NCBI GenBank assembly: GCA_041305085.1
Contig: JBFYMA010000022.1
Location: forward strand, 484-64,483
DNA from: Nanobdellota archaeon
GTDB lineage: Archaea; Nanobdellota; Nanobdellia; Woesearchaeales; UBA9642
Reading direction: 5' to 3'
DNA length: 64,000 bases
Positions within the stretch are counted from its first letter, which is position 1. Each line of letters opens with the position of its first letter. Positions 26,246 to 52,574 of the stretch are shown in pieces. The notes beneath the pieces are model-generated. The model ran no database searches. It saw nothing but the letters and a program-made list of their open reading frames with translations, and was not told where the DNA came from. The translations under genes were made by a program, and so were the position numbers.

Positions 26246-26271
26246 CTACAACCCCTTTTTTTTTTGACAAT

Positions 26272-31663: not shown

Positions 31664-31719
31664 TATTTTTTGAAAGATATTCTCATATTTAAAGTTGTCG
31701 TAATATTGATTATTACAAA

Positions 31720-33006: not shown

Positions 33007-33879
33007 TCAAACATACTTCTCCATGTCCTGGGAGATGTCTTCTTTGTTGATGGGGTAGTCGATCAGCGCTTTGCCGCCCTGGAGCGCTATGCAGTTTTCT
33101 TCGTAGGTTTTTCTTTCATGCTTATAGAATATGCCTATGGGCACTTTTTCTCCGAACTCTTCAGCCTTTTTCAGAGCTGATTCTTTGCTTGTAATATCAT
33201 GCCCTTGATCCTGTAGTTTGTAAACTCTTTCCTTCCAGAACTGGAATGTGTTGTGGTGGTTGAATGTTACGCAGGGCTGGAATATGTCTATGAGCGCAAA
33301 GCCCTTGTGCTTTATGGCTTCCATCATCAGCCATTTTAAGTGCTGTATGTCCCCTGCATACCCTCTTGCAACAAAGCTTGCACCTGAAGCAATTGCGACG
33401 CTTATGGGGTTGAATGGGACTTCATAGTTTCCCTGAGGGCTGGTTTTGGTTATTATGCCTTGTTCGGTTGTTGGGCTGGTCTGGTTTTTTGTGAGTGCAT
33501 AAAGAAGGTTGTCGTGCACAAAATAGCTTATGTTTATGTTTCGTTTGCAGGCGTGTATAAAGTGCTGCAGTCCTTCTCCATAGCCGTCTCCGTCTCCTCC
33601 TGCACTTACCACAGTAAGTCTTGGATTGGTAAGCTTTATCCCTTCAGCAACTGGAATGCCTCTGCCGTGTATTGAGTTGAACCCTATTGTTTTTACCCAG
33701 TAAGGGATTTTGCTGGAGCAGCCGATTCCTGAAGTAAGCACAAATTCATCTCTTGGTATTCCAAGTTCCATGACTGCCATTTTAATTGCAGTCAGTATGC
33801 CGAAGTTTCCGCAGCCAGGGCACCAATTATTGTCTTTGCACGCCCTGTCAAGGTCTTTGAGTGTTATTTTTTGCTCCAT
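33007..33879 (-). CDS. 2-oxoacid:ferredoxin oxidoreductase, beta (TPP-binding) subunit
   Basis: WCPGCGNFGI and GIGCSS TPP/Fe-S motifs. Immediately downstream of the alpha subunit. Confidence 0.85.
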   Translation of the reverse strand: MEQKITLKDLDRACKDNNWCPGCGNFGILTAIKMAVMELGIPRDEFVLTSGIGCSSKIPYWVKTIGFNSIHGRGIPVAEGIKLTNPRLTVVSAGGDGDGYGEGLQHFIHACKRNINISYFVHDNLLYALTKNQTSPTTEQGIITKTSPQGNYEVPFNPISVAIASGASFVARGYAGDIQHLKWLMMEAIKHKGFALIDIFQPCVTFNHHNTFQFWKERVYKLQDQGHDITSKESALKKAEEFGEKVPIGIFYKHERKTYEENCIALQGGKALIDYPINKEDISQDMEKYV

Positions 33880-33882
33880 TTT

Positions 33883-35619
33883 TTATTTTCCCAGCAGTTG
33901 TTTTGCCTTGTCATATATTTCTTCAGGATAAAATGCCCTTCCGTCGTATTTCAAAAATGTGTCAAGCTTGTGGCCTGTGAATTCCCTTATTATTCCTGCA
34001 AGCTGCCCAGTAAAATTGTTTTCAACAACTATTGACTTTTTGAAATTCCTGAAATAGCTGCTGAACTCCTGCTCTGGGAAAGGATAGATATAGGTTATCT
34101 GCAAAAAGTTTACTTTGAGGCCTTCTTTTTCCAGCCACTTCATTGCCTCAAGTATAGGCCCTTTGGTTGAGCCCCAGGAAACAATTGAAATGTCTGCATC
34201 TTTTGGCCCGTATAATTTTGGCTTGGGAATATCTTTTTTTGCGTATTCCAGCTTTCTGAAGCGCTTGTTCATCTGCTGGTTTCTTACTTCTATTGACTCA
34301 TCAAATACGCCAGTTTCATCGTGCTCATCGCTTGTAACCATAAATATTGCTTTTTGGCCTGGAACAGCTCTTGGGCTGACACCTGTTTCAGTATTCTTGA
34401 ACCGTTTATAATTGCTGCCCATACTTGCAGCTTCCTGGTCTGTAAGATAATCCCTTTCACGAACCTTTATTTTGTGCTGGTCAAAAAAAGGAACAGTTAT
34501 TTCGCTGCCTCCAAGGTATTTGTCAGTTATTATTATTACAGGAAGATGGTATTTGTATGCAAGGTTAAAGGCATTTATTGTTTCATAGAAGGACTCTTCC
34601 ATATCTCCTGGAGCAAGAATAATCCTGGGAAACTCCCCGTGGGATGCATTGAGCGCAAACTTCAGGTCAGACTGCTCTGTCCAGGTTGGGATTCCTGTTG
34701 AAGGCCCTCCCCTTGTTGCCAGAACAATAACCAAAGGAGTCTCTGTTATGCCAATCATTCCCAGTGTTTCACTCATAAGCGCAAACCCTCCTCCAGAAGT
34801 GGCTGTCATAGCCCTTGCCCCTGCAAAGCTCGCCCCGACTGCGTGGTTTATGGCGCTTATCTCGTCCTCTGTCTGCTTCATTATGAGATTGTGGGATTTT
34901 TCCCTGTTAACCATCTCTATCATTATTGAGGTTGCAGGAGTCATTGGGTATGCTGACATAAACTTGCAGCCTGCTTTTATTGCTCCCAATGCTATGCATG
35001 AGTTTCCTGTTATGAGCATCTGCTTCTTTTTTTTGTCAAGAACTTCCATCTTTGTTTTAAACCTGACATTGTTATAGTTTTTCTTTACATAGTTGTATCC
35101 TTCCATGAAAAGTTTTGTGTTTTCCTCAATTATTTCTTCGCCTTTTTTTGCAAATTCTTTTTCAAGGATTTCTGTAAACATTGTGGTGTCATAGTCGAGT
35201 ATTGCAGTACTTGCCCCTAATGCTACTATGTTTCGCATTATGGGCTCGCCCTTGTTTTCCCTGACAATCTTTTTTATAGGAACAGAAAAAAGCTGAATAT
35301 TTTTGAAAGGCTTTACATCGACTGTTTCAGGGTCAAAGATTATTGCCCCGTCATCTGTAACCTCTGATGCGTTTTCTTTTATTGTGTTCTGGTTCAATGC
35401 CACAAGTATGTCAATAGGCCTTATCTGGGAGTGTATCTGCTCATCCTCAGCCCTTACATGAAATGTGTTGTGACCGCCCCTTATCAATGAAGGATATTCT
35501 GTATAGCAGAAGACATTGTAGCCTGCTCTTGAGAATGCTTTGGCAAATATTGTGCCTGATTCCATGATGCCATAGCCTGCTTCTCCTCCAATCTTCCAAG
35601 AAACCTTGTTTTTCGCCAT
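33883..35619 (-). CDS. 2-oxoacid:ferredoxin oxidoreductase, fused gamma/alpha subunit
   Basis: N-terminal gamma-like domain (KIGGEAGYGIMESG..F) followed by alpha-domain motifs (AYPMTPAT, GGGFALMSE), as in two-subunit archaeal OFORs. Confidence 0.85.
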   Translation of the reverse strand: MAKNKVSWKIGGEAGYGIMESGTIFAKAFSRAGYNVFCYTEYPSLIRGGHNTFHVRAEDEQIHSQIRPIDILVALNQNTIKENASEVTDDGAIIFDPETVDVKPFKNIQLFSVPIKKIVRENKGEPIMRNIVALGASTAILDYDTTMFTEILEKEFAKKGEEIIEENTKLFMEGYNYVKKNYNNVRFKTKMEVLDKKKKQMLITGNSCIALGAIKAGCKFMSAYPMTPATSIMIEMVNREKSHNLIMKQTEDEISAINHAVGASFAGARAMTATSGGGFALMSETLGMIGITETPLVIVLATRGGPSTGIPTWTEQSDLKFALNASHGEFPRIILAPGDMEESFYETINAFNLAYKYHLPVIIITDKYLGGSEITVPFFDQHKIKVRERDYLTDQEAASMGSNYKRFKNTETGVSPRAVPGQKAIFMVTSDEHDETGVFDESIEVRNQQMNKRFRKLEYAKKDIPKPKLYGPKDADISIVSWGSTKGPILEAMKWLEKEGLKVNFLQITYIYPFPEQEFSSYFRNFKKSIVVENNFTGQLAGIIREFTGHKLDTFLKYDGRAFYPEEIYDKAKQLLGK

Positions 35620-35681
35620 ACACACCCCTTTTTAACTGTTTGAGGGAATATTATTATTTATAAACTTTGCGGATGTTAATG

Positions 35682-36568
35682 CTGTGTCCCGAAAGTGTGT
35701 TGAGCCAGCAGAATAAGTTGTGGCAGGCTAGTTTGCCACAGACTTCTATACAGATGGTTCAGGCTTTTTGAGAGCTTACGCTACTTCCGTATTTGCGTTT
35801 GGTTGCGCCAAACACTGCTTCGATAAGGCTTCTCCGATTGTAGGTTTTTTGTCTGAATGCTTTGTGCATCTTTTTTCTGAAAAAACCCTTTTTTGCATTC
35901 TTTTTCTTAGGAATCATGAGCAAGATTCCTTGCTCATGTGCTTGTTTGTAGAATTTTTCGGAGACGTAATCTTTGTCTGCTACAAGAATCCGTAGATTGC
36001 TTTGCCTTATGAGCTGGTATGCATCTTTAAGGTCGTGTGCGGGTAGCACACGAACCCTGGCGGCACAAAACTTTTTGTGCCGCGTGTCAAAAGCAGCATT
36101 CAACTTAATAGGCACTTTTGGCATTTTACCATCAATACACTTCAAGTAGTGATAGCTAGGGTTTATCCTAGACAAACCCGTTGCGTCAAGCGCAACAATG
36201 CGCACTTGCCTGCTTGTTGCCTTAATTACTTGCTGCCAAAAACGAATATCAAGCTTTGCAGCTGTGCGTTGCAAAAATGATTTTGTTGGGCAAGTAAAAC
36301 CCAACAAGTCACACAACTGCTTGACTCTCCGATAAGAGAGTCTACAACAGAAACGTATCAATAACGCACATATGTACTCGTACAACTCATACATCTTTGG
36401 CCCGAAATGGTGCAGCCATCTCGGACAGCCTAAGCGTTTGAGCAAACGCTTAACTTTATATACTAATTTTGCTTGTTTCTCCATTGGTAGACACCTGCGT
36501 TGTCCACCCCTCAGACAGCCTTACTGCTGTTTGAGGTTATAATCCTTTAGAAAAATCAGAGTCTCGGG
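35682..36568 (-). mobile_element. IS5/IS4-superfamily insertion sequence with imperfect terminal inverted repeats
   Basis: About 19-bp TIRs: gctgtgtcccgaaagtgtg at 35682 and cagagtctcgggacagagc at 36550 (15/19 complementary). GC content is visibly higher than the flanks. Encodes one DDE transposase. Confidence 0.7.
35759..36484 (-). CDS. DDE transposase (IS5-like)
   Basis: ALDATG, VADKDY and the C-terminal SLIEAVFGATKRKYG motif typical of IS4/IS5 DDE transposases. Confidence 0.8.
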   Translation of the reverse strand: MEKQAKLVYKVKRLLKRLGCPRWLHHFGPKMYELYEYICALLIRFCCRLSYRRVKQLCDLLGFTCPTKSFLQRTAAKLDIRFWQQVIKATSRQVRIVALDATGLSRINPSYHYLKCIDGKMPKVPIKLNAAFDTRHKKFCAARVRVLPAHDLKDAYQLIRQSNLRILVADKDYVSEKFYKQAHEQGILLMIPKKKNAKKGFFRKKMHKAFRQKTYNRRSLIEAVFGATKRKYGSSVSSQKA

Positions 36569-36623
36569 ACAGAGCATATATATCCATTAAGTATTTAAAT
36601 ATTGCAAATTTTTGTGTTGTAAT

Positions 36624-36693
36624 AACAAAAATTTCGACATGAAGGTCGGGCATTCAACCCATAGAAATTTCTCCTTTTAGTCGAAATTTTCAA
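36624..36693 (-). repeat. structured intergenic repeat, copy 4 (hairpin module only, reverse orientation)
   Basis: The reverse complement reads ttgaaaatttcgactaaaaggagaaatttctatgggttgaatgcccgaccttcatgtcgaaatttttgtt. Ends 9 nt before the wecB ATG, abutting the IS right end. Confidence 0.65.
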
Positions 36694-36701
36694 TAAATAA
36701 A

Positions 36702-37826
36702 ATGGAATCAAAAAATTGCAGGATAAAAATCATTAACGTTGTAGGCGCAAGACCTAATTTTGTCAAAATTGCACCTATTATGAGGGAGCTAAGAAACCAT
36801 AGTTTTTTTGAACCAATACTTGTACATACCGGACAGCACTACACAAAATCCATGAACGAGTATTTTTTTGAAGATTTGGGAATACCTAATCCTGATTACT
36901 CTTTGGGTGTGGGGTCAGGCTCTCATGCTGTCCAGACAGCAAAAATAATGACTGAGTTTGAAAAAGTGTGCCTTTCTGAAAAACCTGATCTCGTACTGGT
37001 AGTTGGTGATGTTAATTCAACAATAGCATGCGCACTGGTTGCAAAAAAGCTTCACATAAATGTTGTGCATGTAGAAGCAGGATTGAGAAGTTTTGACAGA
37101 GAAATGCCTGAAGAAATCAACAGAATATTAACAGATTCCATCTCTGACTTGCTTTTTGTGACAGAGATTTCAGGGATTCAAAATCTAAAAAATGAAGGGG
37201 TTTCTGAAGATAAAATGTTTATGGTTGGAAACGTAATGATTGACTCCCTTGTTCACAGCATTAAAAAAATAAGAAATGGGAAGTATTTTAAAAAATTTGG
37301 AGTAGACCCAAAAAAATATTTTGTACTAACTCTTCACAGGCCGAGCAATGTTGACAAAAAAGAAAACATTTTGTCCCTTCTTGATGCCATCAGCAAAATA
37401 CAAAAAAATGTAAAAATTGTTTTTCCTATTCACCCCAGAACTCTGAAATCACTAAAGGAAAAAAACATTCTGGAATCAGTAAAAAAAATGCAAAACCTAA
37501 TAATTTGCGAACCACTAAACTATATTGGCTTTTTGTCATTGGTCTATTACTCGAGAGGTGTCCTGACAGATTCGGGAGGGATCCAGGAGGAAACAACATA
37601 TTTCAAGATTCCTTGTATAACAATCAGGGAAAACACAGAAAGACCTTCAACAACAAAAACAGGAAGCAATATTTTGGTAGGTACTAATCCTGAAAGAATC
37701 GTTGAGGAAGCAAAAAAAGTTCTGGAAAATAAAAAATTTGAATCAGGGATACCTGAATTTTGGGATGGAAAAACCGCAAAAAGAATCGTTCAGATATTAT
37801 CAGAGCGTTTGAAAAATGGCAGTTAA
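36702..37826 (+). CDS. wecB: UDP-N-acetylglucosamine 2-epimerase (non-hydrolysing)
   Basis: KIINVVGARPNFVKIAPI, HTGQHY, HVEAGLRS, typical WecB/MnaA motifs. Confidence 0.88.
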   Translation: MESKNCRIKIINVVGARPNFVKIAPIMRELRNHSFFEPILVHTGQHYTKSMNEYFFEDLGIPNPDYSLGVGSGSHAVQTAKIMTEFEKVCLSEKPDLVLVVGDVNSTIACALVAKKLHINVVHVEAGLRSFDREMPEEINRILTDSISDLLFVTEISGIQNLKNEGVSEDKMFMVGNVMIDSLVHSIKKIRNGKYFKKFGVDPKKYFVLTLHRPSNVDKKENILSLLDAISKIQKNVKIVFPIHPRTLKSLKEKNILESVKKMQNLIICEPLNYIGFLSLVYYSRGVLTDSGGIQEETTYFKIPCITIRENTERPSTTKTGSNILVGTNPERIVEEAKKVLENKKFESGIPEFWDGKTAKRIVQILSERLKNGS

Positions 37827-39144
37827 AATAATCATTGTTGTGTTGGCTCCTGCAAAAGGAATTGGTGGAGGAAACAGAAAATTCAAAATTTATTATGACA
37901 ATTTTGATAAAAAATACTTTAACAAATATTATGTTTTTCTTGACAAAAACCCCAGAGCTTTTAAAAAAAACAAAGACGGTACATTCAACATAGGACTTGA
38001 AAAGTTACAACAATTTTTGGACAAAAAAAAGGCAGATTTTTTTTTTAGTGGGGAAAAAATTCCTGAAAAATTTTATAACGAAATTAAAAAAAAGTGCTTT
38101 TCCATAATTAATGTAAATTTCACATATCTTTATTCTAAAGACTCTAAGGATATAAACATTATCATAAGCAAGACAGACTATTTAAAGATAAAGCTTATTA
38201 ACAAAAAAATCCAGAACGCATATGTAGTATACAATCCCATAGATGTAAAAAAATGGGAATCTTTAAGAAATAATAGTCAAGGAAAGTATAAAAACTATTT
38301 TAAAAACAAAAAAATAAAATTAATTGTTGGTAGACTGGCCAGAGCAGAGCCCAGCAAATGGAATTATTTGATTATTAAAACACTTCTGCAAATGCAAAAA
38401 AGAAAGATATATGATTACGGATTTGTATTTGCAGGCATGACTGCATTATACAGAAAAACATTGCAGCTTTTCTTGGGAAGAAAAATGCTTGAAAACATCC
38501 TGTTTCTTCCCGAACTCAAAAAAGATGAAGACTTATCCAATTTTTATAACTCTATAGATCTTTTTTGGCAAACGTCCTTAATTGGCGAAAGCTTTGGAAA
38601 CGTTATTGCAGAAGCTTTTTACTTCAAGGTTCCAGTAATAACTGATTATAAAAGATTTGTGAGAAAAAATAAAAGAATAGACTTTTGGAGATATGATGCC
38701 CAGATAGAACTGGTGGATGATGGAAAAAATGGAAAATACTGCAACTATCCACAAAAAGTTATACAATTTTTGCAAAATACAAACTCTAAAAAACTTAAAA
38801 AAATGGGGGAAAATGGACTAAAAAAAACAAGATCTAAATATGATGTCAGGGACACATGCAAAACTTTTGCAAAAATATGCTATGAATACCTGAGAAAAGC
38901 CAAAAAAATTCCCAAAGATCCAAAATTTGAAGCCATCAAAAAAAAGCCTTCAGAAAAAGAATTAGATGATTATGAAAAAGAGTATTTTAAGAGAATAAGT
39001 TATGCTGTAAAGATTAACAAAATAAAACAAAACGAAAAAAGGACTTACAAAATCCAGGAATGGTTCTGGAAAAAAATAGAGTTGTTATATGTTGTAGTAA
39101 GAAAAGTTTGCAAAAAGCTCAAAATAGAATTGGAAAAGATGTAA
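37816..39144 (+). CDS. glycosyltransferase family 4 (GT-B) with a C-terminal extension
   Basis: EX7E motif GESFGNVIAEAF. Overlaps the wecB end by 11 nt. Confidence 0.7.
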   Translation: MAVKIIIVVLAPAKGIGGGNRKFKIYYDNFDKKYFNKYYVFLDKNPRAFKKNKDGTFNIGLEKLQQFLDKKKADFFFSGEKIPEKFYNEIKKKCFSIINVNFTYLYSKDSKDINIIISKTDYLKIKLINKKIQNAYVVYNPIDVKKWESLRNNSQGKYKNYFKNKKIKLIVGRLARAEPSKWNYLIIKTLLQMQKRKIYDYGFVFAGMTALYRKTLQLFLGRKMLENILFLPELKKDEDLSNFYNSIDLFWQTSLIGESFGNVIAEAFYFKVPVITDYKRFVRKNKRIDFWRYDAQIELVDDGKNGKYCNYPQKVIQFLQNTNSKKLKKMGENGLKKTRSKYDVRDTCKTFAKICYEYLRKAKKIPKDPKFEAIKKKPSEKELDDYEKEYFKRISYAVKINKIKQNEKRTYKIQEWFWKKIELLYVVVRKVCKKLKIELEKM

Positions 39145-39145
39145 A

Positions 39146-41008
39146 ATGTGTGGAATTTCAGGAATGGTTTTAGGAAATGGACAGGTTTCAGAAGATGTTC
39201 TGGAAGAAAATAACAATATAATGAAGCACAGGGGTCCTGATGATTCAGGAATATGGATTTCTAAAGACAAAAAAACAGGATTTTCCCATTCAAGGCTTTC
39301 AATCGTAGATCTTGATAAGAGATCAAAACAACCAATGATTTTTGAAAATGAAAAAATTGTCATCATTTTCAATGGAGAAATATATAACTATGTTGAGCTA
39401 AGAAAAAAACTTCAAAAAAAATACAAATTCAGAACAACATCTGACACAGAAGTTTTGGGTTATTTGTATATTGAAAAAGGAGTGAAGCTCTTAGACGAGA
39501 TAGAGGGAATGTTTGCATTCGCAATTTATGAGAAAGAACAAAATAAGACTTTTATTGCAAGAGATTTTATAGGACAAAAACCACTCATCTACTGCCAAGA
39601 TAAGGAAGGGTTTTTTTTTGGCTCAGAAATACCTGTCATTCTCAACAGCAACCCTAAACTTGACAAAAAAATTGATTATGGTTCTTTAGGTGTCTTTCTA
39701 ACTCCAAATTTCAGCCACATACCTGCACCATTCACTATCTTCAAAAATATCAAAAAGCTGGAGCCATCACATTACATAATAGTGAAACAAGGAAATATTA
39801 TTGAAAAAAAGCAGTATTACAAACTTCAAAAGAAAAAATTAAAAAAAAGAAACGAAGCTGATTTTATTTGCAGAAAAGTTAACTGGATGAAGCCTCTGGA
39901 CGTCAAATATGCCTCTTTCCTTTCGGGAGGTAATGATTCCTCACTTGTTTGCAGCTGTCTTGAAAAAGAAGCTGAAAAAAAAGTAGAGGTATATACGTTA
40001 AAGGTGGGAAATACTGATAAGGATTTTGAAAGAGCCAAATATGTTGCGAAAACACTGCATTTAAAACACAGCACAACAAATTTTAACTTTGAAAATTTTT
40101 TGAATAGTTTGGAAGACCAGATAAAAAACTTTGGCGAGCCTTATTACCACATCACTTCTGTTTATGCAGACTATATTCTGAATATGGTTGCAAAAAAATA
40201 CAAAGTTTTGTTTTCAGGCGCGGGAGGGGATGAAGTCTATTACGGGTATGACAACATCCAGTTTATTTTGATTGACTTTTTCCTTAAATCAAAAAAAATA
40301 ATTCCAAATTTTTTGTTTAAAGTTTTTCTGCCAAAAAAATATTCCTTTTTGCACGATGCAAACCATCAAAATTTCAAAGAAAAGTATTACAGCCACTGCT
40401 TTAACAGAACAAAAAATATTTTTGATTCTCAAATTGTTTGTAAAAAAACAAAAGAATACCTGAAAAAAATAAGCTCACAAATATTTATTCTCACAGATGC
40501 AAAAAATTATTTGGATATATCATACATGGCAGGAATTTATATAGAAAACAGCCATTCACTCACAATACAAAGCGATCTTGTGGGGATGAAAAACTCTGTG
40601 GAGATAAGATGTCCTTTTTTGGAAAAAAAAGTTATAGAAAGCGGATACAGTCTTCCTTTGCACAAAAAGATAAGTATTTTCAGGATAAGGGAAGGAAAAG
40701 AAGTGATAAAAAAAGCGCTTCTTAAAACTTTTTCAAAAAAATTTGTTTACTCAAAAAAAATTGGTTTTGGAGTGGAGTTCAAAGGACAAAAAAAAATACT
40801 AGAGTTGCATACAAAAAAAATAAGTAAGTACTTGAAAGATTTGGCAAAAAGAAAAGAGTTCAGCAACCTAGAAATAAGCAATATTCTTAAAAGAAAAAAA
40901 GAAAAAAAGTTTATACTTTTGATGAAGCTTTACTGCATCGAGACATGGTTTAAGGAATTTATCGACAAAAAAAATCATGATGTTAATTATTTTTTAGCAC
41001 AAAAATGA
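39146..41008 (+). CDS. asnB: asparagine synthase (glutamine-hydrolysing)-like amidotransferase
   Basis: N-terminal MCGISGMV (Ntn Cys) and PP-loop SGGNDSS. 620 aa. Confidence 0.85.
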   Translation: MCGISGMVLGNGQVSEDVLEENNNIMKHRGPDDSGIWISKDKKTGFSHSRLSIVDLDKRSKQPMIFENEKIVIIFNGEIYNYVELRKKLQKKYKFRTTSDTEVLGYLYIEKGVKLLDEIEGMFAFAIYEKEQNKTFIARDFIGQKPLIYCQDKEGFFFGSEIPVILNSNPKLDKKIDYGSLGVFLTPNFSHIPAPFTIFKNIKKLEPSHYIIVKQGNIIEKKQYYKLQKKKLKKRNEADFICRKVNWMKPLDVKYASFLSGGNDSSLVCSCLEKEAEKKVEVYTLKVGNTDKDFERAKYVAKTLHLKHSTTNFNFENFLNSLEDQIKNFGEPYYHITSVYADYILNMVAKKYKVLFSGAGGDEVYYGYDNIQFILIDFFLKSKKIIPNFLFKVFLPKKYSFLHDANHQNFKEKYYSHCFNRTKNIFDSQIVCKKTKEYLKKISSQIFILTDAKNYLDISYMAGIYIENSHSLTIQSDLVGMKNSVEIRCPFLEKKVIESGYSLPLHKKISIFRIREGKEVIKKALLKTFSKKFVYSKKIGFGVEFKGQKKILELHTKKISKYLKDLAKRKEFSNLEISNILKRKKEKKFILLMKLYCIETWFKEFIDKKNHDVNYFLAQK

Positions 41009-41156
41009 GCTGAGGTGTATAAACAGACCTTATTTTGGCAGCAATTTTTTCTATTGCACTTTTAAAGCTAACCCTTGGAAAATCAAAATAACAAAAATGT
41101 GCCTGATGACTGAACAGCTCGCCCTACTCCCTGCCTAAATGCAAGGTATAGATCAA

Positions 41157-41240
41157 TCAAAGATTGCTGGCATCACTCTGTGATATTCAACCCTGCGCAA
41201 TTTTCAATAAATTTCTGGCATCCCTCTGGGACATTCAGGA
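41157..41240 (-). repeat. partial copy of the intergenic repeat (reverse orientation)
   Basis: The reverse complement contains gggttgaatatcacagagtgatgccagcaatctttg, identical to the core of the copies at 50140 and 47300. Confidence 0.6.
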
Positions 41241-41625
41241 TGGAGTAGGATGTTAAAATCAAAACAATACAATAGCAGGAGTATAAAATACAAATAGAAA
41301 ATCGTGGCAAACATAACACCTGCATTTTTTTGCTGAACTGCTTTTTATCAGAATGATTTTTGGCTGGCTGATGCCAGCATTGTGCTGAGCTGCGCTCAGA
41401 ATACACCTGATTTTGTCAGGCTATGGCCTGCCATTGGAGGGTTTAGGCCGCGCAAAGCGCGGTTATTGTATTCATTCTGATCAATATTTTACAAGCCTGT
41501 AATTTTTATGATTCTTATGATTCTCATAATTCTCATAATCTCCACAATTCTTAATTCGATGCCTGAATGCTCGCAAAATTTAACACACCAAAAATTATAT
41601 AAATAAAGGAGATTCACTTTGTACT

Positions 41626-42765
41626 ATGAGGGGGGTTTGGTTCTTTGCGCTTATATTGATTCTTGTATTTGTATCTTCGTGCGTCCAGCAGTCCGAAACA
41701 GGAATAATCAAAAAGGGCGTTCAGAACGCTGTATCTTACAACAACACAAAAGACTGCCTTACCCAGAGTGGTGTGTGGAGAGATTTCTGCTATAAAGAGG
41801 TTGCCATAAATCAGGACAGTGCTGGTCTCTGCGAAAAGGCAGGCACAACAATGGATGCCTGCTATTACGGGATTGCAAAAAACAGGGTTGACGAATCTTT
41901 GTGCGCAAAAGCTGGTGGAGAGATGGACAACTGCTATTATGATGTTGCAAAAGAAAAAGAGGATGAATCAATATGCAAAAATGCAGGACTAAGAAGGGAT
42001 GTGTGTTTTGAAGACATTGCATTAATGAAATCAGACGAAACAATCTGCGAAGACGCAGGCAGAAGAAGGGATGACTGTGTTGCAGGGATTGCCCAGAAAA
42101 CAAATAATGACCTTTTGTGTGAGGATGCAGGCAAGAAAAAAGGCTTCTGCTATTTTATGCTTGCCCAGCAGAAAAAGGCAGAAAACCTGTGCATGAATGC
42201 AGAGGAGATGAAGGGCAACTGCTATTACAAGCTTGGAGTGCTGTTGGAGGATGCGCTGCTTTGCAACTCAACATACAGTGGAGCCTATTTCAATTTATGC
42301 TATAAGGAAGTTGCAGTTATTTTGAAAAATGAAAAATTTTGCCAGAGCGCAGGCAACAAGTCAAATGAATGCTATTGGGAGACTGCAAAAGCAAAATCTG
42401 ATGAAAGAATTTGTGAATCAATAGAGGATGACCAAAAAAGCTCAGAGAGCTGCTTTTATGATTTGGGTGTTGCCAAAGAAAACATTTTAATATGCAACAG
42501 GGCAGGCTCTCAAAAGAATGCCTGCTATATCAAGGTTGCATCCAGCACAAAAGATGCCAGCATCTGCGAGCAGACGGCCAGCAAGGATTCCTGCTATGTG
42601 GCTGTTGCCCAGTCAGTAAAGGATGAGTCTTTGTGCGATAATGCAGGCAGCAAAAAAGAAGAATGCTATTTTTCTCTTGCAAAAATAAAAAAACAGAGTG
42701 ACCTGTGCGCATCTACAGGGGAGAGCCAGCAGGCCTGCATGAAGCTCTTTGAAGTTGTAGAATAG
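41626..42765 (+). CDS. secreted/lipoprotein-like repeat protein: 14 tandem 24-aa two-Cys repeats
   Basis: Signal peptide ending VSSC. Repeats follow the pattern LCxxAGxxxDxCYxxxAxxxxDEx (e.g. LCAKAGGEMDNCYYDVAKEKEDES). DNA period is about 72 bp. Confidence 0.7.
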   Translation: MRGVWFFALILILVFVSSCVQQSETGIIKKGVQNAVSYNNTKDCLTQSGVWRDFCYKEVAINQDSAGLCEKAGTTMDACYYGIAKNRVDESLCAKAGGEMDNCYYDVAKEKEDESICKNAGLRRDVCFEDIALMKSDETICEDAGRRRDDCVAGIAQKTNNDLLCEDAGKKKGFCYFMLAQQKKAENLCMNAEEMKGNCYYKLGVLLEDALLCNSTYSGAYFNLCYKEVAVILKNEKFCQSAGNKSNECYWETAKAKSDERICESIEDDQKSSESCFYDLGVAKENILICNRAGSQKNACYIKVASSTKDASICEQTASKDSCYVAVAQSVKDESLCDNAGSKKEECYFSLAKIKKQSDLCASTGESQQACMKLFEVVE

Positions 42766-42772: not shown

Positions 42773-44269
42773 TTAATTTTCTGATTTTGTCAAAACCTTC
42801 TTTCCAAGGCTTTCAAATTTTTCTCCGTCCAGGTATTCTCTTATCTTTGTTTTGAGATCCTCAACTTTTACTCTTATCTGGCTCTCTGTGTCCCTCTCCC
42901 TGAGGGTTACTGTATTGTCCTTCAATGAATCAAAGTCTATTGTTATGCAAAGCGCAGTGCCTTTTTCAGCTTCCCTAAGATATCTTTTGCCAATGCTTGC
43001 TGACTCATCATAGCTACACACAAACTCTTTGTTGAGCTCTGCAAAAATATTTTGGCCCATTTCAGGAAGATTGTCTTTTTTTACAAGCGGAAGTATTGCA
43101 GCTGTTACAGGACTCATGCTAGGCTTGACCCTTAAGGCTGTTTTCCCCTCATTCTTTGTCTTTATGTCATAAAAATTATCCAGAAGGCAGAAAACAGGCC
43201 TGTCTGTTCCAAAAGCAATTTCCAGCACATGTGGATGCTGCTTTTTGTTTTTATCATTAGGCACTTCAAAGCTTTTTCCTGAAAACTTTTCATGCTGTTT
43301 TAAGTCATAGTCAGTCCTGTCGTGGATGCCGCAACACTCAATCCATCCAAAGCTGTCAGTCTTTATCTCAAGGTCCCAGGCATCGTCTGCGTAAAAAGCC
43401 ATTTCTTCTTTGCTGTGCTGCTTAAGCCTGATGTTTTGCTCTTTGAAGCCCATCTCCCTGAACAAGCTGTATGCTATTGTAATTGTCCAGGCATATGCAT
43501 AGTTTTTGAAAAGCTTTTTTTTCAGTGCGTCTTTTACAGAAATGTTTTCCTGCTTGTCCTTTTTGTTGCTGATGAGCGGAAGAACTGTTTTTTCTATTGT
43601 TGTAATATTGTAATCCTTTTTCTGCTCTGGAAAAATAAAAAGCTGGGCCTCTGCCTGGGTAAACTCTCTCATCCTTACTATGTGCTGCCTTGGGCTTATC
43701 TCGTTTCTGTAGGCCTTCCCAATCTGGAATACTCCAAAAGGAAGCTTTTTCCTGAAAAAATCGTAATACCTGATGAATGGAAGGTATGTGGTTGTGGCTG
43801 TTTCAGGTCTTAAAAATGCTTCTGTGTCTATGCCAATAACTGTTTTGAGCATAAGGTTGTGCTTTTTTATTGTTTTTGGAAGCGTTGCCTGGCAGTTTGG
43901 GCACTTGAAATCATTATTCTTGAAAAATTCTGGATAATTAGAGATTTTTTTGCCTGGAAAAAGCTCGTTCACTATTGTTTCAATCTTGAATGAGGAATTG
44001 CACTTTCCGCACGTTGCAACATCATCTGTAAATCCTCCAAGATGGCCTGAAGCCTCCCATACCCTGCCAGGCATTATGGTTGGCAGCTCCACCTCCCAAA
44101 AATTGTGCTTTTGGAAGTGCCTTCTTATGTGCTCCTCTACCTTGTTTTTGAGCAGCTTTCCAAGAGGTGCATATGTGTAGAATCCTGACAGTCCGCCATA
44201 TACTTCTGGAGAAGGCCCCCACACAAACCCTTTTTGCTGCAAAAAGCTTATCAGCTCTGATGCATTCAT
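42773..44269 (-). CDS. glyS: glycyl-tRNA synthetase (archaeal/eukaryotic-type class II)
   Basis: N-terminal FVWGPSPEVYGGLSGFYTYAPLG, class II motifs, C-terminal anticodon-binding domain. 498 aa. Confidence 0.85.
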   Translation of the reverse strand: MNASELISFLQQKGFVWGPSPEVYGGLSGFYTYAPLGKLLKNKVEEHIRRHFQKHNFWEVELPTIMPGRVWEASGHLGGFTDDVATCGKCNSSFKIETIVNELFPGKKISNYPEFFKNNDFKCPNCQATLPKTIKKHNLMLKTVIGIDTEAFLRPETATTTYLPFIRYYDFFRKKLPFGVFQIGKAYRNEISPRQHIVRMREFTQAEAQLFIFPEQKKDYNITTIEKTVLPLISNKKDKQENISVKDALKKKLFKNYAYAWTITIAYSLFREMGFKEQNIRLKQHSKEEMAFYADDAWDLEIKTDSFGWIECCGIHDRTDYDLKQHEKFSGKSFEVPNDKNKKQHPHVLEIAFGTDRPVFCLLDNFYDIKTKNEGKTALRVKPSMSPVTAAILPLVKKDNLPEMGQNIFAELNKEFVCSYDESASIGKRYLREAEKGTALCITIDFDSLKDNTVTLRERDTESQIRVKVEDLKTKIREYLDGEKFESLGKKVLTKSEN

Positions 44270-44331
44270 GGAGTTATTGAAGAAACCAGAAGTTTAAATA
44301 ATTGATGGTTTGGGGATATTATTGAAAATTG

Positions 44332-44372
44332 CGCAGGGGTTTAATACCCCTACCTTCAGGTCGCGGGAGGAG
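44332..44372 (+). repeat. degenerate fragment of the intergenic repeat
   Basis: ttgaaaattgcgcaggggtttaatacccctaccttcaggtcgcggg matches the hairpin module of copy 3 (47212). Confidence 0.5.
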
Positions 44373-44382
44373 GTTATTTGAA

Positions 44383-47211: not shown

Positions 47212-47398
47212 TTGAAAATTTCGCAGGGATTTAATACCCCTCACTTTAGTGCGAAATTCTTCAATTCCAAAAATGTGCCTTACAAGATTGCGAGCATGTA
47301 ATATTCCAGAGGGATGCCAGCAATCCTTGATTGCTCTGCACCCCTGCATTTAGGCAGGGTATAGGGTGAGCTATTAAGTCATAAGGCACATTTTTGTT
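47212..47398 (+). repeat. structured intergenic repeat, copy 3 (degenerate tail continues to about 47530)
   Basis: ttgaaaatttcgcaggg...gtgcgaaattcttcaa hairpin, then aaatgtgccttac...gatgccagcaatccttgattgctctgcacc...cataaggcacatttttgtt. The terminal stem is perfect. Confidence 0.75.
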
Positions 47399-47584
47399 AT
47401 CATGATAACACAACTGCGCACTGTGGTGCACAGCCTAGACTCGCCAAAGGAGGGCAATAGCCAGGCAGAGCCGGGTTTTTCCTGAGCAGAGCTCAGTAAT
47501 CTTCTGGCAGGTGCCAGCAATATCATCATGATTAAGCATTATTCTGCTTTATACAAAAAATAAAAATAGTTGACTCTTACTTCT

Positions 47585-48206: not shown

Positions 48207-50021
48207 GTGATAATTTTGGAAACAGACAAAAAAGAAAACTATGAAGAAAACGATAACATTTACAAGAACGATCTGGACTTTAATGAAGAAGACTATGAAG
48301 TTGATGCAGAAACAATAGAAATAAACGACGATGCTGACTCTCCTGCACAAAAAAAGCAGGAAGAGTCTTCCGCCAATGCAAAAAAAGCTGCAATACAGAG
48401 AGATGATGATAATGAAGAAAAAGACAAGCCAGTTGCTTCTTCCAGGCCTATGAAAAAGGTTTCAAAGCCTATAAAGCCTGTAGTAACAAGAAAAGCAAAG
48501 AAAATTACAAAAAAAACCAATTCAAAGCCTTCAAAAAGCCCAAAAAAGCCAAGCAATTCAAATGGTGAAACAGCAGTATGGCCTTGGATTGTGCTTATCA
48601 TAGTAATAGTGACTGCAGCTGCAGTTCTTATCTGGAGCATTGTTACACATCCACCGCAGCAGCAGACAGCTGGCAATAATACAGTTGTTGCCACAGTGAA
48701 CGGCGAGCAGATAACCCTGGGAGAAATTAATGCCAGATATGACTCTCTGAACCCATTTTACAAGAGCGTAATAACAAAGGAACTGCTTTTAAACCAGTCT
48801 ATAGATGAGTTGCTGCTGCTTCAGGAAGCAGAAAAAGAAGGTTTAACAGCAACAGATCAGGAAGTTGAAGACCTTATAAATTCGATACTTGAGGAAAGCA
48901 ACATGTCCTATGATGATTTTGTTTCAAGGCTTGCATCGCAGGGAATATCCATTGATTATGTAAGGAGTGTATACAAGAATCAGATGATTATAGATAAAGT
49001 CCTTAACCAGACGGTATTTAAAGGTATTGAGGTGTCAGAGCAGGAAATTGAGAATTACTATGAGGAAAACAAGGACCTGTTCACAGGCACGCCTGACCAG
49101 GCAAAGGTAAGGCATATACTGGTTGCCATAGACAACTACACAACTCTTGAACTGGCCTCTGAAAAGATAAATGAGGCAAAAAACAAGTACTTGTCTGAAG
49201 AAGAGGACTTCTGCAGCCTTGTGGCAGAGTATTCTGATGACGCAGGAAGCATTGCCTCATGCGGAGAATACACTTTTCCAAGGGGTCAGATGGTGCCTGA
49301 GTTTGAAAATGCAGCGTTTGAGCTGGAGCCAAACCAGACAGAGATAGTGCAGTCTGTCTACGGCTATCACTTTATAGAAAAACTTGAGGATATTCCAGGA
49401 ACCGTTGCATCGTTTGAGTCCTTGAGGGACCAGATAGAACAGACACTGCTGTACCAGAAGCAGGAAGAATCATATATGAGCTACATAAAAACACTGAGGG
49501 ATTCTTCAGCCATAACTGCCAACTATGATGCTCTGGAAGCTGAGGCTATGGAAGAGCAGGCAGAAACAACAGGAAATGTAGTGACAGAGCCAATAGAGAA
49601 TGTGATTGGTGAAGACCAGGAAACCTCAGACCAGTCCATGCAGGAAGAAAACTCTGTGCAGCAGGAGCAAACATCTGAACAACAAGAAACAATGAATGAG
49701 CAGCAAGAAATACAGGATGAAACACAGAATGAAGATTCTTCAATGATAGAAAATACAGAAGAGCTGAGAACCTGCCTTGCAGCTACAGATGCAGTTTTGT
49801 ATGGTGCATACTGGAAAAAAGAAGTAAAAGAGCAGAAGGATATGCTTGGAGATGTTTTCGATGTGATAGAATATGTTGAGTGCGATCCAAACTATCCTGA
49901 CAGCCAGCCTGAAAAGTGCTCAGAGAAAGAAATAGATGTTTATCCAACATGGATAATAAAAGGGGAAAAATCTGAAGGCAAAAAAACCCTTCAGGAATTG
50001 AAAGAATTGGCTCTTTGCTGA
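48207..50021 (+). CDS. membrane-anchored parvulin-type peptidyl-prolyl isomerase (PrsA/SurA-like) with a C-terminal thioredoxin-like domain
   Basis: Low-complexity acidic/basic N-terminal tail, one TM, SurA-like chaperone region, parvulin core (VRHILV...YGYHFI), an acidic Q/E linker, and a C-terminal YGAYW..YVEC.PNYP..C..YPTWIIKG domain. Confidence 0.75.
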   Translation: MIILETDKKENYEENDNIYKNDLDFNEEDYEVDAETIEINDDADSPAQKKQEESSANAKKAAIQRDDDNEEKDKPVASSRPMKKVSKPIKPVVTRKAKKITKKTNSKPSKSPKKPSNSNGETAVWPWIVLIIVIVTAAAVLIWSIVTHPPQQQTAGNNTVVATVNGEQITLGEINARYDSLNPFYKSVITKELLLNQSIDELLLLQEAEKEGLTATDQEVEDLINSILEESNMSYDDFVSRLASQGISIDYVRSVYKNQMIIDKVLNQTVFKGIEVSEQEIENYYEENKDLFTGTPDQAKVRHILVAIDNYTTLELASEKINEAKNKYLSEEEDFCSLVAEYSDDAGSIASCGEYTFPRGQMVPEFENAAFELEPNQTEIVQSVYGYHFIEKLEDIPGTVASFESLRDQIEQTLLYQKQEESYMSYIKTLRDSSAITANYDALEAEAMEEQAETTGNVVTEPIENVIGEDQETSDQSMQEENSVQQEQTSEQQETMNEQQEIQDETQNEDSSMIENTEELRTCLAATDAVLYGAYWKKEVKEQKDMLGDVFDVIEYVECDPNYPDSQPEKCSEKEIDVYPTWIIKGEKSEGKKTLQELKELALC

Positions 50022-50029: not shown

Positions 50030-50265
50030 TTGAAAATTTCGACTAAAAGGTGAAATTTATATGGGTTGAATATCACAGAGTGCAGCAACCTCTGCTGCTC
50101 TGCACCCCTGCCTTCAGGTCGAAATTTTCAATTCCAAAAGTGCGCCTGAGAAGATTGTGAGCCAGTAATATCACAGAGTGATGCCAGCAATCTTTGATTG
50201 CTCTGCACCGCAACCTTTAGGTCGAGGATAGGGCGAACCTATCAGTAATCAGGTGCATTTTTGTT
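50030..50265 (+). repeat. structured intergenic repeat, copy 2 (full composite form)
   Basis: Contains the ttgaaaatttcgac...gtcgaaattttcaa hairpin module and the gtgcgcctgag...atcaggtgcatttttgtt stem-enclosed module. The atatcacagagtg core occurs twice. Confidence 0.8.
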
Positions 50266-50863
50266 ATTTTTTCTTTCCTTTTTTTACCCTGCTAGTAATT
50301 CTGGAAAGCTCGTTAACATTTTCTGTAAATGCAGGCAGCACTTTTGAAAACACTTTTTCCATAGCCTTTATCTCACTTCCGACTTCTAGAATGTTTTTGT
50401 CGTACTCTCCTATTTTGCCAATCACTGCCTGGTGAAGCTTGTCAAAGCTGTCCTTTAAATCGTTGAACTTCTGCTCCAGTGAAGTAATTTTGTTTTCTGT
50501 CTTGTTCTTCCATTCAATAATCTTGTTTATATCCTTTACAAGCTCGTTCCACTTTTCATCAATTATTGCCTCTATAAGGTCTTCGCTTGATCCAAGATCG
50601 TTCATTGTGGGCTGTGGCTGTGGAATGCTCATTGGAGCTGGAGAATCCATTCCTGGAAAACCTCCGAATCCTGCTCCCTGGCTGTGGCTGTGCTGTATTG
50701 ACCCCCCTCCAATATTTTCTGACTGGTCAAGTGCTCCTATGATATCAGAATAAGTATAGCCATCCCTCTGCAGACTCTCAATTATCTGAGTGTTTGAAAG
50801 GCCCTGCGCCTTCATATTTTTTACCTGGTCAACTGGAGGTTTTTTGTTGCCCAAAAATGCCAT
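50264..50863 (-). CDS. hypothetical protein (N-terminal small helical domain, Gly/Pro-rich linker, C-terminal coiled coil)
   Basis: 199-aa ORF. No catalytic motif. Confidence 0.5.
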   Translation of the reverse strand: MAFLGNKKPPVDQVKNMKAQGLSNTQIIESLQRDGYTYSDIIGALDQSENIGGGSIQHSHSQGAGFGGFPGMDSPAPMSIPQPQPTMNDLGSSEDLIEAIIDEKWNELVKDINKIIEWKNKTENKITSLEQKFNDLKDSFDKLHQAVIGKIGEYDKNILEVGSEIKAMEKVFSKVLPAFTENVNELSRITSRVKKGKKK

Positions 50864-51369: not shown

Positions 51370-51966
51370 CTATCTTTCTGTCAGGAAAACGAGTGCAAGA
51401 ATTCCGACTATTAAAAGGAATAGAAGTCCAAGAACTTTTGGATGGAACAGGGTGTTGTAGAGGTTTGTTGTAAAGCTTCCTGTGTCTGTGGATTGGCCCT
51501 CGTTGACATCAACGCTGTTATCAGTGCTGACATCAGAATTTCCATTATTGTTTGTTGAAGTTGAATTTCCTAATCCCTGCTCAAGCGCGCTCTGGCCGAA
51601 GACGCTTCCAAATCCAAACAAAAGAATAATTACAGAAATAGTTATCACCCACATCCTGGCTTTGGGAATAGCACCCATAATGCTGCTGTCTTCTGCGCCG
51701 AAAACCCTGAAAACAAATATTATGAGGAAAACGACAACCACAAGTATTAGGAACCAGGGAACAATAAAATTCACAAACCCCAGTGCAAACTTGCTTGCGA
51801 GCACAAGCACTGCTACAGAAACTGCAACCATTCCGTTAAGCCCTTTTTTTTCTGCACCAAAAGCCTTTGTTTTTTCCAGCAATGCATAGACAATTATCCA
51901 GACCAGTATAAAAGTAAATACTGATCCGAAAAATGAAAAAAGGCTCAGGTCTAAAAGCGTTGCCAT
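51370..51966 (-). CDS. paralogous integral membrane protein A (third of a tandem triplet)
   Basis: 4 predicted TM helices. N-terminal motif ..VFTFILVWIIVYALLEKTKAFGAEKKG is shared with the two upstream paralogs. Thr/Ser/Asn-rich extracytoplasmic loop. Confidence 0.65.
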   Translation of the reverse strand: MATLLDLSLFSFFGSVFTFILVWIIVYALLEKTKAFGAEKKGLNGMVAVSVAVLVLASKFALGFVNFIVPWFLILVVVVFLIIFVFRVFGAEDSSIMGAIPKARMWVITISVIILLFGFGSVFGQSALEQGLGNSTSTNNNGNSDVSTDNSVDVNEGQSTDTGSFTTNLYNTLFHPKVLGLLFLLIVGILALVFLTER

Positions 51967-51968
51967 GT

Positions 51969-52574
51969 TCAGTCCCTTTTTCCTCCTTCCTGAAGCATTT
52001 TTGTAAGTCCCTTTACCCAGCCTTCGCTGTCAGCACCCCTGGGCTTGTCCTCTTTGGTAATAAACCATATCACTATGCCGAAAACAAGAATTGTTATTAC
52101 TGCTGCCTGGGTTGAAGGATCCCTTAAAAATCCAAGCCAGCTTGGCAGGCCAGTCCATCCTGCTTGTGTTGCAAAGATATAAATTACTATTATAAAAGCG
52201 GCCAGAACAATCCATCCTCCAAATGAGTGCTTGGAAATGTCCAGCTCTTTGCCAAAAACACCAATAAGCAATAGAACCATTAGTATGGCAACTATTATCA
52301 GGGAAATGTTTGGCAAAGCGCCATTTATTATCTCAACAATGTCAAACCTTCCATAGCTTCCTGTAACGTGCGGAATTACAACTGCAAGCGCCATCACAAG
52401 GGAAACAATAACATTGAAATTCTTTTTTGGCCTGCCGTCAGGCTCTTTTCCGAGAATTTTTGCCTTTTGCAGCACAGCAAAAACCAGTGTGAATATAAGT
52501 ATGAACGGGAGTATTACATCTACCAACCCTATATTCTCAAGCGACCTAAGCGCGTTTTCAAAAAAGCTCATCAA
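51969..52574 (-). CDS. paralogous integral membrane protein B (second of the triplet)
   Basis: IGLVDVILPFILIFTLVFAVLQKAKILGKEPDG N-terminal motif. 4 TM. 2-nt spacer to paralog A. Confidence 0.65.
   Translation of the reverse strand: MMSFFENALRSLENIGLVDVILPFILIFTLVFAVLQKAKILGKEPDGRPKKNFNVIVSLVMALAVVIPHVTGSYGRFDIVEIINGALPNISLIIVAILMVLLLIGVFGKELDISKHSFGGWIVLAAFIIVIYIFATQAGWTGLPSWLGFLRDPSTQAAVITILVFGIVIWFITKEDKPRGADSEGWVKGLTKMLQEGGKRD

Follow-up and report, generated by a model that had tools for sequence, protein, structure and literature searches.

The Hcp proteins of Helicobacter and mitochondrial COA7 are elongated alpha/alpha solenoids, exported or located in the intermembrane space, in which one disulfide per repeat joins the two helices of that repeat. 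They contain 4-9 repeats of 30-36 aa or longer, with helices of similar length, and their known roles are in the binding of proteins or small ligands. In COA7 the intra-repeat disulfides connect cysteines 8-11 residues apart and bridge two helices, and HcpB and HcpC are likewise disulfide-bridged alpha/alpha repeat proteins (PMC8892353). In this work we analysed a window of 64,000 nucleotides (the whole stretch under study, positions 484 to 64,483 of contig JBFYMA010000022.1) from a Nanobdellota archaeon of the Woesearchaeales, which holds a gene for a protein built from repeats with two cysteines each (the repeat gene and repeat protein in what follows). A first-pass annotation of this DNA had read the product as a secreted, lipoprotein-like, disulfide-stapled solenoid or surface array protein of a repeat family that it did not recognise.

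Other helical repeat classes are also of concern here. TPR proteins, including the consensus-designed CTPR and MamA, are right-handed stacks of helical hairpins and belong to the binding scaffolds; their unit has 34 aa and no cysteines, and they are mostly cytoplasmic. The LRV repeat (PF01816, 1LRV), which we took as a lead, combines an alpha-helix with a short 3-10 helix in each 24-residue unit, and its units form a superhelix; to our knowledge it is cytoplasmic and lacks a conserved cysteine pair. De novo designed helical repeats (DHR and toroids) are idealised, very regular short helical repeats, artificial and without cysteines, with longer two-helix units. DPANN archaea and the bacteria belonging to the Candidate Phyla Radiation (CPR) account for a large share of microbial diversity and live attached to other cells, and their surface proteins are mostly unannotated.

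RESULTS

The repeat array

The reading frame of the repeat gene (Table), whose breakage the first-pass annotation had named as a refutation, was found intact from start to stop, and the 28 cysteines counted there are present as 14 pairs; the lipobox Cys19 brings the total to 29. Past Cys19 the spacings between consecutive cysteines alternate between 10 (range 9-13) and 14, and the consensus of the 24-aa unit is [LI]-C-x2-A-G-x3-D-x-C-Y-x2-[IVL]-A-x4-D-E-S, in which we call the two cysteines C1 and C2. Fourteen tandem 24-residue units had been described. Fourteen two-cysteine units were indeed found, but only nine of them are exactly 24 aa long, the remainder being 25, 26, 27 and 23 aa and, for the C-terminal cap, 20 aa. 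Similarly, the proposed conservation of Cys-Tyr held well, with C-Y or C-F at the second cysteine of 12 of the 14 units, whereas that of Ala-Gly was weaker (8 of 14).

The residue autocorrelation of the protein at lag 24 was 0.234, compared with 0.065 +/- 0.013 in 2000 shuffles (z=12.6). At the DNA level the autocorrelation at lag 72 was 0.408, compared with 0.275 on average (sd 0.029) over lags divisible by 3, in agreement with the 72-bp periodicity noticed earlier. Tandem Repeats Finder detected no DNA-level array within the gene, suggesting that the units are old and diverged rather than the outcome of a recent expansion. The repeat motif was found in no other open reading frame (ORF) of the window. 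The net charge of the protein is -11, and that of an ortholog on contig L126, described below, is -31.

Export signal, linker and C-terminus

The N-terminus of the protein (MRGVWFFALILILVFVSSC) has a positively charged n-region followed by a hydrophobic h-region, with a Kyte-Doolittle maximum of 2.94 (15-residue window) from residue 6. The V-S-S-C at the end of the h-region fits the published lipobox consensus [L/V/I][A/S/T/V/I][G/A/S]C (PMC12462473), and the ortholog has L-V-G-C (in LLVGC) at the equivalent site, which supports the lipoprotein-like reading; the mature N-terminus is predicted to be a lipidated Cys19 (41680-41682). Predicted lipoproteins have been reported to be prevalent in DPANN archaea, in which AliA has also been reported (PMC12462473). 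The C-terminus, ending in QQACMKLFEVVE (EEPCRLLFEE in the ortholog), showed neither a hydrophobic segment nor a PGF-CTERM-type archaeosortase signal, so that of the two anchoring signals proposed for checking the lipobox was found and the sorting signal was not.

The linker between the lipobox and the array was modelled with a predicted local distance difference test score (pLDDT) below 50 at residues 21-35, yet its sequence is kept in the ortholog as GI[IV]xKG...AVSYN[ND]T. It carries one of two sequons, at N39 and at N244 of unit 9, that are found at the same positions in both proteins, and these suggest N-glycosylation of a surface rod.

Predicted structure

AlphaFold2 folded the full-length protein from its single sequence with a pLDDT of 84.5 and 220 residues at 90 or above; the other four models were poor. 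For a fragment of the six regular units and their flanks (aa 62-215, 154 residues, alignment of 10 rows, nine of them homologs) the pLDDT was 95.3 and the predicted template modelling score (pTM) 0.86, and all five models reached at least 94.4. The two models consist of helices throughout, those of about 6 and about 15 residues alternating strictly, which supports the solenoid proposed in the first-pass annotation. In the modelled unit, a helix of about 6 residues with the first cysteine (x-S-L-C-x-K) is followed by a single residue outside the helices (Gly of the A-G pair) and then by a helix of about 15 residues that has the second cysteine as its seventh residue; two residues, ending in the conserved Asp, precede the next short helix. 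In our reading of the models, the long helices would stack in parallel and the short ones would form the return path. The conserved residues (Cys, Tyr, Ala, the aliphatic residues and the Asp at helix starts) occupy structural positions only.

Size and distribution of the repeat family

An exhaustive phmmer search of the protein against 1.84 billion cluster representatives returned 1650 relatives at E<=1e-3, 392 at E<=1e-10 and 8 at E<=1e-30, with a best E of 1.8e-55. This search was needed because word-index searching, which found just two relatives with the protein and one with a profile, is ill-suited to a low-complexity repeat. The motif shared by 152 relatives is C-[YF]-x2-[VIL]-A-x4-[DN]-x-[ST]-[LI]-C. 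In these the spacing from C2 to the next C1 was constant at 14 (1529 cases), whereas that from C1 to C2 varied, being 12 in 951 cases, 10 in 327 and 11 in 255, which makes the query a representative of the rarer 24-residue subtype of a mostly 26-residue repeat. The family is defined by at least three consecutive units of C-[YF]-x2-[VIL]-A-x4-[DN]-x2-[LI]-C plus 9-12 residues, with the C2-C1 spacing of 14 and the Y/A/D signature, behind an export signal or membrane anchor, and the query fits it with 14 units.

An N-terminal hydrophobic segment was present in 144 of the 152 relatives and a lipobox-like site in 42. In addition, the array was found joined to transmembrane anchors, past Yip1, DUF5667 or TSP3 domains, or in front of a membrane domain of the multi-pass type. 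These export signals and membrane-domain fusions indicate that the repeat array is an extracytoplasmic module.

To survey the spread of the family, a degenerate DNA motif of 1.5 units was run over the GTDB species genomes, in which a search with the protein alone had given no relative; taxa are given as labelled. It detected at least 120 loci, at least 91 of them with an ORF of at least three units, and at least 97 ORFs with three or more units were found in at least 93 loci of other genomes; members have 3-18 units and the family is multi-copy. Among the matches listed, 84 loci were archaeal and 36 bacterial. The former were assigned to Micrarchaeota (17, including 2 Bilamarchaeaceae), Woesearchaeota (15), Altiarchaeota (11), Iainarchaeum (9), Nanoarchaeota (7), Pacearchaeota (4), Nanohalarchaeota (3) and Aenigmarchaeota (1), to organisms labelled Methanosarcinales or Methanophagales (7) and to unspecified archaea (10), and the latter to CPR/Patescibacteria (29, including 7 Saccharibacteria), unspecified bacteria (3) and other bacteria (4; Pseudomonadales, Izemoplasma, Bdellovibrionales and Campylobacterales). 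Judged from these labels, the family is, among the matches listed, mainly one of DPANN archaea and CPR/Patescibacteria. A viral origin was rejected, a single motif match having been found in 2.9 million viral contigs.

The contigs of two top-scoring relatives carry bacterial genes (DNA polymerase III gamma/tau beside P0003; DprA, Pth, FtsA and FtsZ beside P0010), while the relatives P0004 and P0009 stand in archaeal gene contexts, so the family is common to the two domains. Several genomes had two to four family loci among the matches listed. At least four were seen in one metagenome-assembled genome (MAG) of Iainarchaeum (L025, L039, L044 and L102) and at least three in one of Micrarchaeota (L012, L048 and L101), and such numbers in single small genomes point to paralog expansion in DPANN.

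Cysteine pairing

The pairing of the cysteines was assessed from family statistics. In 1023 core motifs, loss of a cysteine was rare (12 times for C2 and 4 times for the C1 that follows it), both positions being about 99% conserved. When C2 was missing, the C1 of the same unit was present in just 5 of 12 cases, compared with 869 of 1011 otherwise (Fisher p=5e-4), and the next C1 was kept in all 12. When C1 was missing, the C2 after it was present in 1 of 4 cases, compared with 866 of 1019 (p=0.012). The array ends pointed the same way. Past the last core motif, which ends on C1, the number of cysteines was odd in 140 of 152 relatives, and in 84 there was exactly one, located 9-15 residues on, an ending like that of the query's capping unit; the array ended on an unpartnered C1 in only 2 of 152, and a cysteine stood 9-15 residues before the first core motif in 127. 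Finally, the cysteine count past a single N-terminal hydrophobic segment was even in 108 of 122 relatives (p=4e-19), as it is in the query (28). Cysteine loss, array ends and parity together suggested that each C1 pairs with the following C2, 10-12 residues on, which would give 14 intra-unit links in the query. This lends indirect support to the disulfide staples of the first-pass annotation, and we infer that the C1-C2 link is a disulfide and not a metal-bridged dithiol.

The pairs could also be reduced, forming two-thiol sites for Cu(I), Zn or Fe or a redox buffer, so that the protein would be a surface metal sponge or a redox protein. The conservation of about 99% is equally expected of metal ligands, the tendency of both cysteines of a unit to be lost together is just as compatible with a site of two ligands, and COA7, the structural analogue, is redox-active. 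Besides, the family occurs mostly in lineages considered anaerobic, and in the window, which covers only 64 kb, there was no sign of a disulfide-forming gene of the Dsb or VKOR kind. However, no His, Met or extra Cys is conserved beside the pairs, and most metals would be poorly held by just two thiols. Even parity and closed array ends are what structural disulfides classically leave behind in exported proteins, the few core residues (L, A, Y, [IVL] and A) of a 24-residue unit plausibly make a covalent staple necessary, and the nearest precedents, Hcp and COA7, have true disulfides at comparable spacing. We therefore regard reduced, metal-binding or redox-active pairs as quite improbable and continue to favour disulfides.

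A separate observation concerns the 927-aa, 18-unit family member P0004. A gene for a DsbD-type transmembrane thiol-disulfide transporter (L001 1-75, Ga0394675_057886) lies about 6 kb from it, in what is a single case.

Comparison with known families

No Pfam model, including those of Sel1, TPR, LRV and HEAT, matched the query at E<=10. Likewise, Pfam had no match to the repeats in 10 relatives or to 38 three-unit segments (E<=1), none of its Sel1, TPR, LRV or HEAT models matched any of 82 relatives (E<=0.001), and the precomputed Pfam fields were empty for the family genes in all the loci retrieved. NCBIfam gave nothing meaningful for the query or 10 relatives, and the PDB sequences gave no match at E<=10 with either the protein or the family profile, while a Sel1 consensus, used as positive control, found 44 PDB sequences including HcpB (1KLX), HcpC (1OUV) and COA7 (7MQZ). 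Aligned with the Sel1 consensus by hhalign, the family alignment obtained a probability of 0.05%. In the full-text literature that was searched, no earlier description of the two-cysteine repeat was found. The first-pass annotation was correct, then, in not recognising the family. By these searches, the protein belongs to a large, unannotated, cross-domain family of two-cysteine repeats, apparently typical of DPANN and CPR.

The six-unit model with a pLDDT of 95 had no significant Foldseek match in the PDB (best E=0.066, TM<=0.40, TM being the template modelling score). Its top matches were de novo designed repeats (6e9t, 5cwj and 6xr1; E>=0.066, TM<=0.18), which is a class resemblance only. 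The idealised regularity that the query has in common with them explains why AlphaFold2 folds it confidently from a single sequence. Among natural proteins the best matches, also non-significant, were TPR proteins (TM 0.2-0.35 overall; E>=0.014 and TM<=0.31 for the full-length model; E>=1.0 and TM of about 0.35 for the six-unit model). For LRV and PBS-lyase HEAT-like repeats no Pfam match was obtained at E<=10, and their structures, 1LRV among them, were outside the top 50 Foldseek matches.

It might be argued that the repeat belongs, in divergent form, to an alpha/alpha family already described, whether Sel1-like/TPR or LRV/HEAT-like. The weak Foldseek matches were to TPR, consensus-TPR, MamA and Sel1 proteins, the Sel1-like Hcp proteins and COA7 also have intra-repeat disulfides, and LRV resembles the family in its 24-residue unit and its combination of a long with a short helix. 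Such membership seems unlikely to us given the absence of matches in Pfam to the query, its segments and the relatives, the failure of the family profile in the PDB where the Sel1 control succeeded, the hhalign result, the low Foldseek scores in spite of a very confident model, and a unit of 24-26 aa instead of 34 (TPR) or 30-44 (Sel1-like repeat, SLR). Membership in the SLR family in particular was rejected on the positive control and the hhalign result; its Pfam profile had no match, and its unit of about 36-44 aa (30-36 in COA7), with two antiparallel helices of similar length, differs from that of the query in size and build.

The orthologous locus and neighbouring genes

The repeat gene is convergent with the adjoining glycyl-tRNA synthetase (GlyRS) gene, which ends at 42773 and whose relatives at 77, 68, 67 and 64% identity bear the names Woesearchaeota or Nanoarchaeota. 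Together with the archaeal RNase P RNA, these relatives place the window in a Woesearchaeota-like DPANN archaeon; on their names an origin from Methanosarcina, considered in view of Ack-Pta, a GC of ~39% and the long spacers, was rejected. On contig L126, Woesearchaeota-like and with a GlyRS 68% identical, a convergent repeat gene of 375 aa was found directly past GlyRS. The two repeat proteins are 49% identical over their full length with only two gaps, and the L126 ortholog also has 14 units, 29 cysteines and a lipobox. The irregular unit lengths match between them, and units of the same index had an identity of 0.50 compared with 0.29 off the diagonal, the best match being on the diagonal for 9 of 14 units. 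These data indicate that the array is older than the split of the two lineages and that each unit has its own identity; in this comparison the array shows neither concerted evolution nor variation in length. Only the linker and units 1-3, the latter with 62-76% identity, are well conserved.

The ortholog also bears on whether the periodic frame is a functional gene at all. A periodic ORF can be a by-product of repetitive or non-coding DNA, and this one adjoins a spacer with dispersed repeats. Nevertheless, its periodicity is found at the protein level with no tandem repeat in the DNA, a collinear ortholog at 49% identity keeps all 29 cysteines, 1650 related representatives exist and the AlphaFold2 model is confident. 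The ortholog and family data refute this explanation, whose probability we put close to nil.

The gene order of L126 is GlyRS, repeat gene, alpha and beta subunits of pyruvate:ferredoxin oxidoreductase (POR), phosphotransacetylase (Pta) and acetate kinase (Ack). This order is kept in the window, but it is broken up by two blocks of additional genes, one between POR alpha and the repeat gene and the other between Pta and POR beta. The transposase and low-GC genes of the first block (35759-41008) are absent at the equivalent site of L126 and look like an inserted glycosylation island. The accessory-looking context attributed to the repeat gene applies, therefore, to the upstream block (35.7-41.6 kb) and not to the gene, whose place beside GlyRS is kept in L126; on this comparison the gene is no recent accessory insertion, and the block is the nearest element that looks accessory.

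The 617-bp spacer upstream of the repeat gene contains repeat debris, as noticed before: a copy of a dispersed repeat of about 105 nt, a hairpin cluster and a 9-bp tandem repeat. The dispersed repeat is confined to intergenic spacers, and its copies at 41 and 47 kb are 86% identical over 94 nt. It has three predicted hairpins, with compensatory changes in just 2 of 19 pairs, and no Rfam match; it could be a miniature inverted-repeat transposable element (MITE) or a small-RNA family. The hairpin cluster had folding-energy z values of -4.5 (+ strand) and -5.5 (- strand), with no Rfam match at E<=1 and no tRNA, and could represent either a structured RNA or a small element with inverted repeats at its borders. 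A TATA-like box, read directly from the sequence, lies about 26 nt before the ATG and is a putative archaeal promoter, which would give rise to a transcript with little or no leader; the sequence AAGGAG offers a Shine-Dalgarno-like alternative.

Some further features of the window were recorded. The Ack, Pta and POR genes constitute a complete ATP-yielding route from pyruvate to acetate, and in L126 they form one uninterrupted stretch together with GlyRS and the repeat gene. SurA-N and PpiC-type rotamase domains occur in a protein of 604 aa, in the style of bacterial periplasmic folding chaperones; it is conserved close to GlyRS in two relatives, L127 and L128, and would bear on the folding of exported proteins here. 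Three tandem ORFs of about 200 aa are mutual paralogs (second and third 31% identical over 189 aa; first against second E=3e-6) with no Pfam match and with hydrophobic N-terminal regions in all.

Table. Location of the repeat gene, its parts and the surrounding features in the window (positions count from the first nucleotide of the window)
Feature	Position	Strand	Remarks
Repeat-protein coding sequence	41626-42765	+	ATG start; 379 aa; stop codon 42763-42765
Signal peptide and lipobox (predicted)	41626-41682 (aa 1-19)	+	n-region MRG; h-region VWFFALILILVF; lipobox V16-S17-S18-C19
Linker	41683-41751 (aa 20-42; 23 aa)	+	VQQSETGIIKKGVQNAVSYNNTK
N-x-T sequon N39, in linker	41740-41748	+	YNNT; YNDT in L126 ortholog
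Repeat array	41752-42762 (aa 43-379)	+	14 units; C1 in ~6-residue helix, C2 in middle of ~15-residue helix (predicted)
Six perfectly regular 24-aa units in a row	41827-42258 (aa 68-211)	+	Regular-expression match
Sequon N244, in unit 9	42355-42363	+	NKS; NQT in L126 ortholog
C-terminal capping unit	42706-42762 (aa 361-379)	+	C361-x9-C371, then MKLFEVVE
Spacer upstream of repeat gene	41009-41625		617 bp
Dispersed repeat, ~105 nt	41086-41190	+	In upstream spacer
Dispersed repeat, ~105 nt	47297-47402	-	
Dispersed repeat, ~105 nt	50163-50269	-	
Dispersed repeat, ~105 nt	24183-24286	-	
Dispersed repeat, partial	44290-44382	-	
Hairpin cluster	41340-41480		GC-rich; four or five short hairpins; 9-bp closing stem CAGAATGAT...ATCATTCTG
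9-bp tandem repeat	41500-41551		TAATTCTCA; 5.8 copies; 81% matches; ~75 bp before start codon of repeat gene
TATA-like box	41594-41605	+	ATTATATAAATA
Shine-Dalgarno-like site (alternative)	41606-41611	+	AAGGAG
GlyRS	42773-44269	-	Adjoins repeat gene
Archaeal RNase P RNA	16592-16914		
Ack and Pta	24827-27261		
Second extra block, Pta to POR beta	27200-33006		Two unannotated ORFs, GlmS, TrmB regulator, KAS-III-like gene
POR	33007-35625		
POR alpha	33883-35625		
First extra block: DDE transposase	35759-36484	-	
First extra block: low-GC genes	36702-41008		UDP-GlcNAc 2-epimerase, GT1 glycosyltransferase, asparagine-synthase-like amidotransferase; GC 0.29-0.35, window 0.39
SurA-N/PpiC protein	48207-50021	+	604 aa
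Three tandem ~200-aa ORFs	51370-53143	-	

DISCUSSION

The export signal, the family statistics and the structural models together make it very probable that the repeat protein is an exported, cysteine-paired alpha-solenoid of a new family. Its more specific description as a lipid-anchored, extracytoplasmic alpha-helical solenoid of the two-cysteine repeat family is, in our opinion, the best explanation of the data, and one that we hold with moderate confidence. A Sec-type signal peptide would direct export, after which Cys19 would be lipidated by the archaeal lipoprotein pathway and the signal peptide removed, so that the protein would be tethered at the outer face of the membrane through a linker of about 23 residues that is probably N-glycosylated. 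Each unit is predicted, with high confidence, to consist of a short return helix and a long helix, the long helices lying side by side to form an elongated rod. The cysteine of the short helix would be bonded to that located 10 residues on in the long helix, and these 14 staples may offset a small hydrophobic core of about five residues per 24-residue unit. Exposed residues differ from unit to unit as well as from one ortholog to the other, and the rod would present an acidic surface.

In kind, the protein would be a one-disulfide-per-repeat alpha-solenoid like Hcp and COA7, but with a much shorter unit of different build. The distance between paired cysteines is similar (10 residues in the query and 9-13 in the family, compared with 8-11 in COA7), whereas units of 24-26 aa with helices of 6 and 15 residues replace the longer units of evenly sized helices, the query has 14 repeats and its relatives up to 18 or more, and no sequence or profile similarity or significant Foldseek match relates the two groups.

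As to function, other alpha/alpha solenoids such as TPR and Sel1-like proteins work as scaffolds or binding modules, and by analogy with them the most likely role of the protein would be that of a rigid surface rod for the binding or scaffolding of protein or glycan partners, in the envelope or on a host cell; we put this forward tentatively, as a possibility that is rather less than even. Several observations weigh against parts of this picture. Most of the host lineages are thought to be anaerobic and, as mentioned, no gene for disulfide formation was seen in the window, both of which count against the staples. Clustering of the neighbours (483 ORFs in 93 family loci) gave no neighbour family in more than four loci, and Pfam searches of 82 relatives gave no recurrent fused domain, so that nothing indicates a specific partner or ligand. 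At the exposed positions the identity between the query and the L126 ortholog was 0.11-0.56, position by position, which argues against a single conserved surface for binding; units 1-3 may be an exception. Moreover, in two more distant relatives (GlyRS 64 and 62% identical) a gene for an H+-pyrophosphatase or a NUDIX protein occupies the position of the repeat gene, suggesting that the latter is lineage-restricted and dispensable.

This last point is also relevant to the surface array of the first-pass annotation, that is, to an S-layer or other lattice-forming coat protein. With many archaeal S-layer proteins the repeat protein has in common a predicted export and membrane tether, an acidic character and possible glycosylation. 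Known archaeal S-layer proteins, however, are much larger and for the most part rich in beta structure. Close relatives lack the gene at this locus, and the family is multi-copy, varies from 3 to 18 units and appears as an add-on module on unrelated membrane proteins, unlike an essential lattice subunit. A coat-forming role, for which none of the present results speaks, is accordingly highly improbable, and a tethered solenoid rod remains the reading that we prefer.

A bolder proposal would be that the 24-26-residue unit defines a new class of mini alpha-solenoid with one staple per turn and no PDB counterpart, a surface hallmark of DPANN and CPR, the two radiations of ultra-small episymbionts, that has been exchanged between the domains and that serves to keep the symbiont on its host or to span the envelope. 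We mention it as a speculation that is unlikely to hold in full.

New repeat families are to be expected in microbial dark matter, but the present one is abundant, sharply defined, modelled with confidence and absent from Pfam and the PDB. The motif, the unit anatomy and the cysteine pairing rule together provide a searchable definition for at least 1650 sequence clusters that domain databases miss, and the fold is predicted with sufficient confidence for experiments to build on it. With this family, the rare solution of one disulfide per repeat, represented by Helicobacter Hcp and mitochondrial COA7, would be extended to units of far smaller size, and for the design of repeat proteins a covalently stapled helical module of 24 residues would be very compact. 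If the rods serve for attachment to the host, they would be candidate handles with which to study or disrupt episymbiosis. If the disulfides do form outside supposedly anaerobic cells, the question arises of how exported proteins are oxidised there. The family bears, in this way, on how ultra-small symbionts build their surfaces and on whether they oxidise the proteins that they export.

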